Source of the DNA: Eledone cirrhosa
Taxonomy: Eukaryota
Assembly: GCA_964016885.1 (NCBI GenBank)
Contig: OZ024743.1
Coordinates: forward strand, 344,286,001-344,350,000
Reading direction: 5' to 3'
Length of the DNA: 64,000 nt
Each line of letters begins with the position of its first letter. Within the stretch, counting starts at the first letter, position 1. Under the pieces are notes generated by a model, which was given only the letters and a program-made list of their open reading frames with translations, did no database searches and was not told the origin of the DNA. Below are positions 719 through 63,040 of the stretch, piece after piece. Position numbers and translations under genes: made by a program.

Positions 719-898
719 GACCCCGACGGCTGAGCTCAAGCCGTTTCGACGGCTAATTCTGTCCAGAATTAGCCGTCGAAACGGCTTGAGCTCAGCCGTC
801 GGGGTCTTACTTGTTCCTATTACCCACTCTACTACCCTAAGTATTGAGTACTTTGGTGCGTTATGGTCCACCTGGTTCCTTACCACATTTCCATCGTT
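719..898. mobile_element. Fold-back element, family C (hammerhead-like, variant core)
   Basis: Perfect 43-bp arms 719-761 and 764-806, plus a tail to 898. Related copies at 5283-5486 and 40133-40288. Lies between microsatellites. Confidence 0.8.
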
Positions 899-1370
899 AT
901 ATATATTTATATATATACATACATATATATATATATATCTATAGATGTTTATGTATAATGTTTATATATATACATGTTTATATATATATATATATATATA
1001 TATATATATATATATATATATATATATGTATATATATATATATGTTTATATATATATATATATATATATATATATATATATATATATATATATATATAAA
1101 CATATATATATATACATATATATATATAAACATATATATATATATACATATATATATATATATATATATATATATATATATATATATATATGTATATATA
1201 TATATGTTTATATATATATATATATATATATATATATATGTATATATATATATATATATATATAAATATATATATGTATATATATATATGTATATATATA
1301 TATATATATATATATATATATGTATATATATATATATATGTTTATATATATATATGTGTGTGTGTGTGTA
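897..1370. repeat. Long interrupted (TA)n tract, representative of dozens in the window
   Basis: Directly visible. Similar tracts at about 9380-9700, 29000-30080, 30350-31110 and 42480-42600. Confidence 0.98.
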
Positions 1371-1639
1371 TGTACACCATCTCTTCCAATCTTCTTTCCG
1401 AATGTGTGTTAAGAAACGTTGAGCGATGGGAAAGTTACATTAAATATAGAACATTGGTATAAATAATAAGACAGTAACTATCATTGGACTCAAACCCACA
1501 CTTTAATGCACATCAGGCAGAAATACTACCATTACGCCCATGTGCACGTTATTTTGAAGTCATACATGCATAGCGTACTTTGATCATTTATACACACTGT
1601 TCCACTTCATCGACTAACATTCTTTCTAATTTAATTGTT

Positions 1640-57275: not shown

Positions 57276-60200
57276 ATGTAGAATAGAAATAATAATGGAA
57301 ATAATAATATTAATAGCAGTAATAGTAGTAGTAGTAGTAGTAGTAGTAGTAGTAGTAGTAGTAGTAGTAGTAGTAGTAGCAACAGCAGCAGTAGTAATGG
57401 TGGTAGTGGTGGTAGTGGTGGTAGTGATGATGGTAGTGGCGGTAGTAGTAGTGGTAGTAGTAGTTGTAGAAGTAACAGCAGCAGCAGCAGCAGCAGCAGC
57501 AACAGCAGCAGTAGTAGTAGTAGTAGTAGTAGTAGTAGTAGTAGTAGTGACATCTTGTATTCTCAGTTACTCAACACCCCTGAAATCAAGATAAGCTCCG
57601 TTCGCTCTTTTCAAACTTGAAGAAAAAAAAATGGACGCAAAACATTAAATCATCGAAAGTACGAGTGAAAGAATTTCTGAATGAATGAAATGAGGTAAGC
57701 CGAACGTGAATCGAACTATTGTCGCAAAAAAGCAAATCTAGTTGAGTGTAGTGTAATGTACTACAACTCTTGGTTTCCTCGAACGAAGCTTTATGACTTT
57801 ATCTCAAAATATTGTTTACGATATTATATTTTTGTTTTGAATAACCACCATTATCTTGTTATAAAATTATTGTTGTTATTGCTAGAATTGATAATACTGT
57901 TGTCATTGTTATTGCCAATGATGATGATGAGGATGATTATAATGGTAGTGGTGGTAGTAATGATGATGATGATGATGGGGATGATGGTGAAGATGGCACT
58001 GATGGTAATGATGACGATGATTATGGCAATGTCGTTCCTTAATGAATGAGATACACAGAATAATTGGATTAGCTATCATATCTCTATTAGAGCTTCTATA
58101 ACAAATGTTATGCACCTTCATGGGTTCCTGCACCACAACAATATAATACATTGTTCTCTCATTAAAACAGCCTAATCCTAATATCAACAATTTACACGAC
58201 AGAGAAACAAGAATCCATATTGATGACAAATTAACCTGCACACAAATATTGTCCTATTCAGAGTTAGGGTTAGGGTTAGGGTTAGATTTCTGTAAAGTCA
58301 TGTGTCCCCATGAATAGGACAAATATTGTTATATCCAATAGACTCATATTTCTATCCAGTGTTAGAGTTAGAGTTAGGGTTATTATTTGAGATAAGTATA
58401 TAGTATTTTAGAAACATATGTCAGGACAACACTCCTCAACTTTAAAGTGCATAAAAAATAAAAAGCTATAAGAATAATGATAATTTTAAACGTAAACATT
58501 ACATAAACTCACAAGTTATGGGGTATGATATAGTCGACTTTAACAAAACAGTTGTGGATTGTTTATTTTATCAACCTATGAGTTTTGACTCACTATTTTC
58601 AAGCTCTTTCGTTTCTATTTTTTCCGATAGTCTTCAATCATTCTTCAGTTTCCATCTCCTCCTCATCATCGCAAAACTACGTATGCTCTGTTTCTTCTAC
58701 CCTCTAGTTATTCCTGTGCCGGAAGTGGACACATTTTGTTTTCTCGTTTGAATTCCGGTGCTAGTGGCACTGATGTTGAAACGATTTGATTAGTTTCAGC
58801 TCTAACTATCGCTATGCTCGAAAAGAAGGATGCTCTGGATAGAGCGTTTTAGAAGCCAATGTCTTCTGCTTTGGATCCTGTTGCTGTTGCTCTCTCTGCT
58901 GCTGTCTGCCATCTTATTTTTTATGTTGTCTTTTCTCCTTCGTTTGAACTAACAGTCCTGAATAAGTGGTATACGTGTAGCACCTAAACCTCCTGATGTG
59001 CAAACCCAGTCTGATTTAACTATTCAATAAGATACAATGCATTCAATAGGATACAGTCTTCTGAATGTGGTACATGGTTGTGCTTTAGATGTGTGTCTTT
59101 GTTTGAATATAGTTGTTAATACAGTAGCGGGGTGTGTAATGAGGATTGATTGAGGGTGATAAATTCAAGGGTTTGGTTATAGCATTTTGTTTTTGTGCGA
59201 TATATTTATGGTATTCAGAGAGATGGTTAATTGTACATGATTTTCTTTCATGATTCTGATGAAGGAGATGGCGGATTCAATATGTGTTACTTTCAGTAAG
59301 TTTGTCAGGGTTTTATTGTTTTTGCTGATGTAGGAATGTCGTTGCTGTTATGTTTTTTTAATGTTGATACTTTTGTATGTGTACAGCTGTGTTTGAAAAT
59401 TATAAGAACATATTACTGTAATTTAAGGCATGCTAATGTTATTCCCGTGTGTATGTAGCTAATTAAATGATAAAACATATATACAATCATTTTATGCAGT
59501 ATTCGAATTGATAACAACGACTATTATGGATACTATGTAGAGATACAGATAGAAGCTACGAGCGGAATCACGTGACATATGACGTCAGCATGATTTAATC
59601 ATCAATCCTTAAGCAGTTTCGCTTGGTAGTAATTTTCGATTTTGCTTATGTTAAGTGTAGTGTGGTGTAATATTTACATTTTCTGGTCTATTTCCGAAGA
59701 ATTTGCTTTGCTTTACTTTCCTTTCTAATAATTCCATGTTTAGCTTCTTTATTCAACTTCTGTTATTGTCCCCACAATTACCTAGATGCAAGTTCTTACA
59801 TATCAACCAGCTGATTGACACACGGTGAATGTTATAGAGGTTATTACACAACGTGATAATATTTAAAATATTAACGTAAAGATATTTAATATTTATATGA
59901 AATATGTTTTATAATAAAATCACAGAAATTTAGAAAAATGATAACACACAGTCAGTAACGACGGATCAAGATTTTGACCCTCTCTATTGAAAGATCATGA
60001 GATAAGATCGAGGTGAATTTTATGTTGCTCTCATTTAAACCTTACAGAATTCCATCTGAAAGTACACATTGTGAAATTAATATAAATTTCAAATATTAAC
60101 AACATAAGTATTGAAGAAGTGATACATGTATATATATATATTTAGTTTCATTTGCATTAGGTGGCTTGGTAGAAGCGTTAGAGCATCGGATTAATTGCAT

Positions 60201-60627
60201 TATAATTTGTTCCGGCCCACTGAAGTTAACTTTGCTTTTCATTCTTTCTGGTCGATAAGCAAAGCTGTAGATTAGCTTAGATTAGCTTGTGGTATTTGTT
60301 CTAACACTGTGCATTCTAAAAAGTCCCATTTATTGTCACCAGAAATGCGGCAACGCTTCTTCCAGGAGTTCTTGGGGGCATATAGAATCTACAATGTTCC
60401 TTTGGTCCGATTTTTTGATCGGCTCTTTGCCCTTCATGCAATAATTTGAGGTGTAAGCCTTTTTCTTAGCAGGAGAGTATCATTACGTTTTTATCTAAAT
60501 GGTAATCTCTCTCTCTCTCTCTCTCTCTCTCTCTCTCTCTCTCTCTCTCTCTCTCTCTCTCTCTCTCTCTCTGTCTCTCTCTCTCTCTCTCTCTCTCTCT
60601 CTCTTTCTCTCTCTCTCTATATATATA

Positions 60628-63040
60628 TATAAATGTTCTACGCGTATATATACATACATACCTACACATATACATGCATACATACATTAATACGTAAATA
60701 CATACATACATACATACATACATACATACATACATACATACATACATGCATGCATTCATACAAACGTGCATGCATACATACAATCATACATACATACATA
60801 CATATTTGCACACACATGCATAGACATGCATACATACATTCATGCATATATTAATATATATACATATACACACTCTTATACATATATATATATACATATA
60901 TATAAATATATATATAATTATACATATATATATATATATATATATATAATTATATACGTGTATATATATATATATATATATATATATATATATATATATA
61001 TATATATATATATATATTTATATATATATATATATATATATATATATATATATATAATTATATACGTGTATATATATATATATATATATGCGTGTGTGCA
61101 TATAAATATATGGAGTTGTGTGTGCATGTATGTCTATGCTGATGTATGAAGCATAATGATGTATGAAAGAAATTGTAATAAAAATATTGAATCAACCTTA
61201 AATTCCGAGCTCACCAATAGCAGTATCTCGAGTTCGATCACCGTGGACTTCGATGTCCTTGTACGGAAATATACATACACAGCCAAGCTGACAACCCATG
61301 GTCAGCTTTGACCGAAGGAGGCCTTAAATTAATTTTAAAAATTATATATATATATATATATATATATATATATATATATATATATATATATATATTGAGA
61401 CAGGGGGGAAGAAAAAATGGCTTCACTTGTGCTTTCAACAAATTTATTTTCTTCACAAAATCCCAAAAGAATTTTTTTCCGGATTAGAAAAAATTCTTTT
61501 TTTTTTTTTTCTTAAAAAAAATTTATTTTATAAATTAAGTTGTTGGTTGTTGGTTAGGTCTTAGGAGTTCTTGGTTAACGTAGGAGGTATTGTTTCGTTT
61601 TTAGAACGACCTTTCACGCTGAGGTGCGCTTGTCAAACTGATGTGTATGTGGTGTGTTGTTCTATATATAGGGATTTATATATATATATAATCTTTAAAA
61701 TTAAGTTAAGGCCTCCTTCGGTCAAAGCTGACCATGGGTTGTCAGCTTGGCTGTGTATGTATATTTCCGTACAAGGACATCGAAGTCCACGGTGATCGAA
61801 CTCGTGATACTGCTATTGGTGAGCTCGGAATTTAAGGTTGATTCAATATTTTTATTACAATTTCTTTCATACATCATTATGCTTCATACATCAGCATAGA
61901 CATACATGCACACACAACTCCATATATGTATATGCACACACGCATATATATATATGCTGGCCATATTCACTGAACCAGAACATTTCTCCCAATCCCTTTT
62001 CCCTTGACCACTATCTCTCCATTGTCATAACATTCACCATAGACTACATAATAGTTTTCCAAATAAGGGCGCAAAAATGTAATGAAAACTTGTTCACGTG
62101 ACAGCCAAATTTCATTTATAACCAACCAAAAAAAAGCCTTCGTGAGCCTCATTTTTTCAAGTAAAAAGAAATTCAAACACTCATATATGAAAAAACAACC
62201 TGTGACACCCCCCCCCCCCCACCTCTCTTATTTGAAGAACTATTGTAACGCGAACTGGCGCGAAATTTATTATAATTATTGACAAACCAATCAAATTACT
62301 TCTCGAAAAACCTGGTTTTCGAGCCAGTTTTTCCATATAAAACAAGTAACATTTAGAGACCAACCAGATGTGAGAAAAACCACAGACCCTCCATCTCAAC
62401 TCACCTTTTGAAAAGCAGAAGAACTGCGAAACCGGTAAAGGAACCAAATAAATATATATATTTAAAAAAAAATAAGACTTCAGTTGCATTTTCGATTTCA
62501 TCCTTTTTTCTTTATACTTCCACTCGTGTAGGACACCTCGGTTATTTTTCATTTTGTAAAAAAAACCTCACTTTCTAATATATATATATATATATATATA
62601 TATATATATATATATACGTATATATATATATATATATATATATATATATATATATATATATAATATATATATATATATATATACACGTATATAATTATAT
62701 ATATATATATATATATATATATATATATATATATATATATATATATATATGTATGTATATATATATATATATATATATGTATAATTATATATATATTTAT
62801 ATATATGTATATATATATATGTATAAGAGTTTGTATATGTATATATATATTAATGTATGCATGAATGTATGTGCGCATGTCTATGCATGTGTGTGCAAAT
62901 ATGTATGTATGTATGTATGATCGTATGTATGTATGCATGCATGTTTGTCTGAATGCATGTATGTATGTATGTATTTACGTATTTATGTATGCATGTATAT
63001 GTGTAGGTATGTATGTATATATATGCGTAGAACATTTATA
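60628..63040. repeat. Nested inverted repeats
   Basis: Inner arms about 61100-61345 and 61695-61935 (near-identical). Outer microsatellite-rich arms about 60628-61090 and 62580-63040. Confidence 0.85.

Follow-up and report, generated by a model that had tools for sequence, protein, structure and literature searches.

A 64,000-nucleotide (nt) stretch of Eledone cirrhosa DNA (GCA_964016885.1, contig OZ024743.1, forward-strand positions 344,286,001 to 344,350,000), called the window below and numbered from its first letter, carries about one fold-back, that is an insert with inverted arms, per 4-5 kb. These inserts are probably products of Penelope-like elements (PLEs) that target (TA)n, most likely of the Hydra clade, in which both cut DNA strands prime complementary DNA (cDNA) at two fixed sites of an RNA and the two cDNAs are joined head to head. 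The templates would be 5'-truncated 3' ends of coding elements as well as short non-coding hammerhead RNAs copied in trans. The GIY-YIG domain would nick both strands of (TA)n, as it does in vitro in another PLE clade, and each free DNA end would anneal to a UA/AU motif of the RNA over 2-7 nt, thereby priming a cDNA. Two start sites, fixed within a family and 20-160 nt apart, would be used, the ends being visible in the inserts and the priming being deduced from them. The cDNAs would stop at variable points and their far ends would be joined with an overlap of 0-3 nt, by a pathway that we presume from the joints present in the sequence. In the expected product one arm lies flush with (TA)n, the spacer is as long as the difference in cDNA length, and the tail, present on one side only, spans the stretch from one start site to the other; cDNAs that barely overlap would leave no visible palindrome, as at 40133 and 5539. 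Jumps of the reverse transcriptase (RT) between RNAs would generate partial tandems and fusions between families.

The inserts share one asymmetric plan

Fifteen sites were compared, namely 14 short inserts, designated by the starts given in the preliminary description (719, 5283, 5539, 6051, 8543, 14266, 17956, 23615, 28087, 28743, 33340, 40133, 42228 and 61100), and a long element at 34.0-37.5 kb. Self-alignment of the window detected the announced inverted arms at 13 of the 15 sites, with arm identities from 74% to 100%. The two others failed this test, the inverted arm of 5539 being only 14 nt and the self-complement at 40133 only 6-9 nt; by family comparison, both were recognized as two pieces of one family placed head to head. 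With simple repeats masked, 30 local inverted clusters were found versus 0 in each of 20 shuffles, and 11 of the 30 are pairs of one dispersed 200-nt repeat, which we take to be a short interspersed nuclear element (SINE). A count of TA-bounded segments holding fold-backs (19/50) was dropped because one insert counts several times.

A common plan was found at all 15 sites, in which one arm is flush and the other extends into a one-sided tail, in agreement with the asymmetry first noticed. The tail measures 20-160 nt where its end was located; at 23615 and 61100 a tail end was looked for and none was found. The flush end adjoins an alternating A/T run in 14/15 sites, the exception being 719, where it adjoins (GA)6, itself behind (TA)13. 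The tail end adjoins such a run in 11/15 and both ends do in 10/15, the chance baseline being 1.4% of non-TA bases within 3 nt of a TA run. That the inserts mostly touch (TA)n was therefore confirmed, while the statement that all of them lie in (TA)n proved too strong. The 15 inserts span 10,665 bases, or 17% of the window, and simple repeats make up 16%.

Sequence comparison sorted the 14 short inserts into about 11 families, so that several families are indeed present, as proposed, without being fully unrelated. Family A consists of 719, 5283 and 40133; family B of 5539 and 14266 plus a third copy at 17553; and the end of 28087 is common to 33584, 37594 and 39843, three copies missing from the earlier list (I/L end family). 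In families A, B and I/L the same two ends recur in 3-5 copies each and the centres differ, and only in these three is the tail common to copies.

At the flush end, the sequence by which the partner arm continues matches the TA flank over at least 2 letters in 12/14 cases (1.5 expected from local sequence), or in 11/12 when one case per family is counted (1.3 expected). The summed match is 42 versus 6.9 expected, with a maximum of 29 in 200,000 draws, and tail ends with a known continuation show the same TA match (3 letters in B). Three tail-less copies lack an inverted partner (17553, 37594 and 39843) and show the inner site used alone. At 40133, about 60 of the 67 arm bases are without template in the insert, and the other half has a tail that is absent from the arm. 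These features agree with a scheme in which each of the opposite strands primes its own cDNA, at two fixed sites of the RNA, and the far ends of both cDNAs are then joined. Two inserts are fused, with no TA between, to a copy of another family, at 17940/17939 (within 17553-18189) and at 28086 (within 27684-28543), which suggests template jumping between RNAs.

Reads of family B

The 435-nt unit of family B was compared with the reads of two restriction-site-associated DNA (RAD) libraries, which are two samples of one study, and with two contig sets; the organism of the reads may differ from the species of the window, and read counts are not copy numbers. Reads matching the unit amounted to 78,850/12,467,656 (0.63%) and 73,413/12,785,554 (0.57%). 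Respectively 5,612 and 6,259 reads break off at 14330 into (TA)n, a break point that matches the flush site of the three B copies in the window (14322-14330). Seven of the 15 joints listed (58 more were present) connect opposite strands, at differing places, and each of the seven occurs in both samples, with an overlap of 0-2 nt and away from cut sites. The head-to-tail joint of the 435-nt unit recurs in both samples and in one contig set, array length not being readable from these reads. Because a fixed (TA)n-joined end and variable joints are both present in the reads of two samples, family B is neither an artefact nor a fixed miniature inverted-repeat transposable element (MITE), and its fold-backs are genomic.

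Several groups of read ends were set aside. The largest group of loose ends, at 14286/14287 (about 28,000 and 24,000 reads, with mixed flanks), was rejected as a RAD library effect at an AATT site, and it hides the B tail end. Read ends at 14480, 14656/14659 and 14725 were rejected as restriction or religation effects, also at AATT sites. Pattern scans for more copies returned 0 in metagenome contigs and 0 in viral contigs, a blank that is uninformative because the abundant family B is absent there too.

A putative Hydra-clade element of the same plan

The long element (34050..37510, minus strand) appears to be a full-length PLE of the Hydra clade. Its open reading frame (ORF), at 37135-34811 (minus, 775 codons), is predicted to encode RT and then GIY-YIG; these domain names are based on motifs and homologues, because Pfam returned 0 families for both halves of the protein and nothing in four PLE proteins. 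The protein carries RWK and DKT, both invariant in the homologue alignment, a CxCx5C linker, and CxxC and CxH near the C-terminus, with no CCHH inside GIY-YIG, which are all the marks given for the Hydra clade in PMC8557442. Among 73 homologues the best are 40-43% identical and the full-length ones measure about 700-730 amino acids (aa); the sole named mollusc among the close ones is an Octopus sinensis entry, and on visual comparison with printed sequences, P0013 and P0069 match the proteins of Hydra-2_Amil and Hydra-1_Ajap. Having every protein motif, the element is assigned to this clade on sequence grounds.

As first described, the architecture of the short inserts is repeated around this ORF. 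On its 5' side lies an inverted copy of 334 nt of the 3' untranslated region (UTR) (37177-37510), with arms 100% identical; the copy ends 108 nt before the 3' end of the 760-nt UTR, leaving a one-sided tail of that length, and TA runs flank the element on both sides (33996-34049 and 37511-37577). At 34207-34240, stem I (6 bp), GAAA, a palindromic helix III and the cut triplet of a hammerhead are present. According to PMC8557442, nearly all Hydra families target (TA)n, Hydra-1_Obim comes from Octopus bimaculoides and Penelope-13_HM has an inverted, 5'-truncated copy on its 5' side; Naiad families of octopus with a (TA)n preference are also listed.

Two further Hydra-clade candidates were found, a second, broken PLE at 37764..39833 (minus; 36-50% protein identity to the first, frameshifted and 5'-truncated) and the 3' fragment of a third at 6320..6785 (plus; linker and GIY-YIG, 43% identity). 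The I/L end resembles the 37764 element weakly. Between the 44 nt before the start codon of the long PLE and the beginning of its 3' tail there is a weak likeness (score 31; 37100-37185 vs 34050-34160), possibly the trace of a decayed tandem repeat.

Hammerheads and retrozyme-like units

A strict motif scan gave 4 hammerhead hits (14542-14580, 14863-14899, 17757-17799 and 27809-27854) versus 0.3 per shuffle, and at a score of at least 10 there were 4 versus 0.03 per shuffle. The claim that many inserts carry such motifs could be kept only in part. A complete core is present in 3/15 listed sites (8543, 14266 and 17956) and beats the shuffle null in 2 of those 3 (score 19, null at most 0.002); just the 3' half occurs in three A copies and the long PLE (4/15), and 33340 holds a relic (1/15). 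The hammerheads of B, of family H (27684..28086) and of 8543 share the layout tabulated for Hydra elements.

Rfam returned one weak Hammerhead_1 match, at 18112-18151 (19.1 bits, E 0.079; gathering score 34). For the whole window, no hammerhead was present among the 150 of 250 matches listed, almost all of which were miRNA models on hairpins or microsatellites and all of which were below gathering; no match was obtained at 27700-28090, which leaves the family H hammerhead unscored. Six isolated hammerheads folded no better than shuffles (z -0.15 to -1.69).

B and H are non-coding units of 435 and 317 nt in partial tandem, each copy being one unit plus a partial repeat, with no multi-unit array in the window. 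Judged by their sequence, both fit the type I hammerhead non-coding unit of retrozymes. Joining at the hammerhead cut site was considered and rejected: at 14266 the arms cross intact hammerheads, and joints lie 14-140 nt beyond.

The PLE origin and the head-to-head union of two 3' ends that had been proposed are supported by the Hydra-type ORF of the same plan, Hydra-type hammerheads, fixed ends with variable centres and published in vitro data.

Alternative explanations

The closest competing account also invokes PLEs and has the arm made by self-priming: a single cDNA, or an antisense template, would fold back and act as its own template, and deletions at the centre would later make the arms uneven. 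This is the published reading of the palindromes at PLE inverted junctions (PMC3846280), and it agrees with the hairpins of 719 and 6051, which are near-perfect and have loops of 3-4 nt, with the resemblance of the 719 centre to a hammerhead stem II region and with a fold-back at 15683 in a Tx1 element, formed without PLE start sites. However, it does not explain why each family has one fixed flush site, used in 3/3 B copies and thousands of reads, although a longer TA run lies only 55 nt away (14384-14394, where the reads are masked). The tail-less solo copies and the untemplated arm bases of 40133 also speak against it. We consider self-priming unlikely, at a level that still deserves attention; priming on both strands is what we infer, with self-priming as its published alternative.

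Three other explanations depart further from this. The inserts 6051, 28743, 42228 and 23615 could be palindromic DNA-transposon MITEs with TA duplication, the tail being flanking DNA and (TA)n having grown from one-sided duplication. They are single copies without hammerhead, the inner arm end is usually followed by TA, and elements with terminal inverted repeats (TIRs) and MITEs are annotated in octopus. For A, B, I/L and the long PLE, common tails and variable centres exclude the same account, A and B lacking the fixed symmetric ends and constant centre of a TIR MITE (their ends are asymmetric and their joints variable). Moreover, five singleton tails end exactly at a TA block within 160 nt, with a joint chance of about 3e-4 from the other gap lengths of the window (a small sample), and no TA follows the inner arm end of 42228 or 23615, so that a MITE origin of the four seems improbable to us. 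Host DNA could also have been duplicated by folding back at (TA)n hairpins or cruciforms in replication or repair, with no retroelement; this would suit 61100, whose centre is (TA)n and in which a microsatellite mosaic is duplicated, and the (TC)n(TA)n(GA)n palindromes at 614-718. But central (TA)n is what it predicts, and the other 14 sites have it at their outer ends; nor are dispersed families, hammerheads or an RT ORF predicted. As a general cause it is very improbable, while for 61100 alone it is plausible, with a chance somewhat below even. Sequencing or assembly artefacts could be suspected from the 100% identity of the 334-nt arms of the long PLE. Against this, arm divergence elsewhere is 2-26% and includes indels, each family has constant ends, the arms of 61100 are interrupted by later inserts, and the same family B fold-back joints occur in two separate libraries away from restriction sites; such an origin is hardly credible.

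Several observations weigh against two PLE cDNAs as the general source. Seven of the 15 listed sites have no hammerhead above chance, and the long PLE has a non-canonical one, in which the first core box deviates, and an in-frame stop in its ORF (35828-35830). None of the short families has a 3' end clearly common to the 34 kb element, so that the acting protein can be named only tentatively. Naiad PLEs in octopus also prefer (TA)n, though they are reported as remnants. The UA match can be read as a TA target duplication as well, a palindrome could have become asymmetric through a later deletion, and the start sites of the Poseidon RT are called non-homologous to the cut DNA (PMC11167929). The Tx1-type fragment at 15683 carries a fold-back too (15683-15803), so that not every hairpin is PLE-made. 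Finally, the reads are masked at 14368-14417 and cut by restriction sites, and the opposite-strand joints are absent from the two contig sets.

Comparison with known systems

The Hydra clade (PMC8557442; Hydra-1_Obim, Penelope-13_HM) resembles the present system in its protein motifs, (TA)n target, 3' hammerhead, inverted copy and listed octopus family. Judged by eye, the 34 kb ORF represents another family than Hydra-1_Obim, its N-terminus being different; it also has a greater length (775 codons, in a body of 3.1 kb), contains a stop and is accompanied by a hammerhead whose core is non-canonical. PMC8557442 gives few Hydra families outside cnidarians and, in its accessible text, reports no short non-coding Hydra derivatives. 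Inverted pseudo-long terminal repeats (pLTRs) with a one-sided tail of 30-40 bp are standard for PLEs (PMC8557442, PMC3846280), and the published insertion plan (PMC8557442 Fig. 2; PMC3846280) has the same head-to-head inverted copy, junction palindromes, one-end tail and microhomology; in contrast to the stated 30-40, the tails here measure 20-160 nt, and the inserts are mostly 150-850 nt and non-coding.

The Poseidon element PAc of Anolis has both strands cut and extended in vitro, two adjacent internal RT starts making a tail, and its template is uncleaved at the hammerhead (PMC11167929). Its starts lie inside the ORF and are called non-homologous to the target, whereas here non-coding 3' starts match (TA)n by 2-7 nt, and the accessible text of that paper draws no link from two-start RT to inverted pLTRs. 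Animal non-LTR retrozymes (PMC7229834; 10.64898/2026.07.22.740005), which have been proposed to derive from PLEs, consist of units that are non-coding, about 300-400 nt long and equipped with a type I hammerhead whose helix III is weak and palindromic; B (435 nt) and H (317 nt) fit this description. Retrozymes are described as tandem arrays, whereas the window holds monomers, partial tandems and inverted arms in (TA)n. The palindromic Harbinger repeat of Xenopus tropicalis (PMC5625713) is likewise a self-folding repeat in a species of extreme hyper-editing, octopus being the other extreme species, but it is a DNA transposon with a palindromic consensus, and here palindromes would arise anew at each insertion. 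The architecture itself, with inverted 5' copies, one-sided tails, a (TA)n target and an octopus family, is already known for PLEs. New here are the density, the short non-coding families, the long tails, the UA microhomology and the cross-family chimeras.

In twin priming of L1, a nick in the second strand primes a second cDNA, giving an inversion without duplication, at variable internal sites. By contrast, the arm described here duplicates the 3' region from a fixed site. Neither fold-backs of octopus PLEs, nor twin priming by PLEs, nor a link to editing was the subject of any paper that the literature search listed; Repbase and subscription papers, older Penelope reviews included, lay outside its scope and may hold the model.

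Individual inserts and other repeats

In family A, 719..897 (plus) is a near-perfect palindrome (718-807) with a 91-nt tail, a hammerhead 3' half and a flush end on (GA)6; 5283..5484 (minus) has arms at 5363-5487, an 83-nt tail and (TA)n on both sides; and the head-to-head join 40134..40287 (plus) is made of a 67-nt inverted piece, largely partnerless, followed by an 80-nt tail. The flush flank of 719 lies in 614-718, where two arrays, (TC)n(TA)n(GA)n or (TC)n(TA)n, are present, the second being a perfect palindrome. Family B includes the fold-back 14268..15123 (minus), with its unit in partial tandem, a 55-nt tail, 385-nt arms identical in 372/385 columns and a hammerhead in both arms (14542-14580 minus, 14863-14899 plus); the short insert 5541..5729 (plus), with a 14-nt inverted arm and a 60-nt tail; and the copy without tail 17553..17939 (minus), which ends at the flush site in (TA)n and has its hammerhead at 17757-17799. 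The tail of the family C fold-back 17940..18189 (minus; arms 78% identical, each with a hammerhead core, and a tail of 20 nt) joins the 5' end of this last copy.

Among the I/L ends, the fold-back 28086..28543 (minus) has 75% arms and a 26-nt tail fused directly to the family H element 27684..28086 (minus), whose type I hammerhead lies at 27809-27854 and which ends in (TA)n. The tailed copy 33584..33995 (minus) has an opposite-facing piece with a hammerhead-like core as its left part and is a probable hidden head-to-head join, 37594..37751 (plus) stops without a tail at the flush site, within a short TA run, and 39843..40053 (minus) has a tail-less end and a degenerate hammerhead core near 40001. 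Family G (40571..40684, no strand assigned) combines a hammerhead-like piece (minus) with a 44-nt end common to 27315, with (TA)n on both sides. The TA-bounded segments 33584-33995, 40571-40684 and 27315-27451 resemble two ends head to head with little or no overlap, and further such joins may hide among short TA-bounded segments, e.g. 7890-7962 and 40317-40509. A lone family H 3' end at 27167-27257 faces the 27684 element across a TA-rich stretch; this pair was rejected as a fold-back, the two ends meeting tail to tail.

Five single-copy inserts were given no firm assignment, architecture being their sole basis. Single-copy fold-backs lie at 5922..6304 (minus; arms 6054-6304, 97%, 132-nt tail, no hammerhead found; architecture only), 8400..8889 (minus; arms 8546-8889, 146-nt tail, complete-core hammerhead near 8600-8650), 28748..28991 (plus; 39-nt tail, no hammerhead found, architecture only), 33178..33575 (minus; 74% arms, 160-nt tail, hammerhead relic) and 42230..42477 (plus; 74% arms, 49-nt tail, no hammerhead found, architecture only). 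An uncertain fold-back at 23617..24267 (plus) has 67-nt arms (94%), a 515-nt spacer and its far end outside (TA)n. The large inverted duplication 60632..63040 (no strand assigned), with arms of about 740 nt that are half microsatellite mosaic and are broken by 61396-61662 and 61956-62577, has (TA)n at its centre and is of uncertain origin.

Other repeats were also noted. An apparently full-length long interspersed nuclear element (LINE) of L1/Tx1 type at 45731-50764 (minus) contains an ORF1 of 532 aa, in which a zinc knuckle is weakly matched, and an open ORF2 of 1100 aa, which matches endonuclease, RT and zf-RVT. A 3' fragment of the same LINE type (15683-16205) bears the above-mentioned 5' fold-back of 55 nt (82% arms) beside (TATC)n. 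A broken RT-encoding LINE fragment (PF00078) at 25200-27040 (minus) is flanked by similar TG-rich stretches (25060-25175 and 27083-27160). Clusters of the 200-nt repeat, presumably abundant octopus SINEs, occupy 1625-2700, 11580-12700 and 51860-55720 in both orientations, with 11 local inverted pairs and little near-perfect pairing. Two two-copy families, 41561-41751 / 52301-52490 and 42017-42148 / 52748-52883, have ends that adjoin TA runs.

Double-stranded RNA and (TA)n growth

The B insert folds at -691 kcal/mol versus -197 for shuffles, and a transcript crossing such an insert would be predicted to form long double-stranded RNA (dsRNA). The published dsRNA criterion (>95% identity over 40 nt within 2 kb; PMC5625713) was used in an ungapped version. 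By this measure 7.0% of 50-nt windows qualify, 4.2% in simple repeats, 2.7% in these fold-backs and 0.13% elsewhere; the published genome-wide figure for O. bimaculoides, 0.44% (PMC5625713), is not directly comparable with 7.0%, since this stretch was chosen and the assembly and code differ. Octopus is described in the same paper as having an exceptional share of near-perfect dsRNA loci and very high hyper-editing, the responsible repeats being unanalysed there. Lizard Penelope is reported to be heavily edited. As to (TA)n growth, one hint comes from 61100, where TA amounts to 21 nt at the mirror site and to about 12 plus 106 nt where the 62-kb insert lies; slippage could also explain it.

How PLE inverted pLTRs form and how microsatellites are targeted is called an open question in section 15 of PMC8557442. 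With a fold-back every few kb, thousands of natural events with readable start sites and joint would be available, which would make the choice between twin and self-priming computable. Repeat pipelines may mislabel such inserts as MITEs or SINEs, and the repeat library of PMC13282606 may contain these families. We advance only tentatively, as a possibility we rather doubt, that short PLE products, often retrozyme-like RNAs, form a large and so far unrecognised class in octopus genomes. Each insertion would build its own hairpin from two cDNAs, primed at UA motifs from both strands of (TA)n and sometimes on RNAs of different families; these hairpins, rather than SINE pairs, would be the main non-microsatellite source of the near-perfect dsRNA that underlies the extreme hyper-editing of octopus, and their repeated insertion would help to lengthen (TA)n. 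At the density seen here, fold-backs may be a main source of the dsRNA that octopuses edit heavily.

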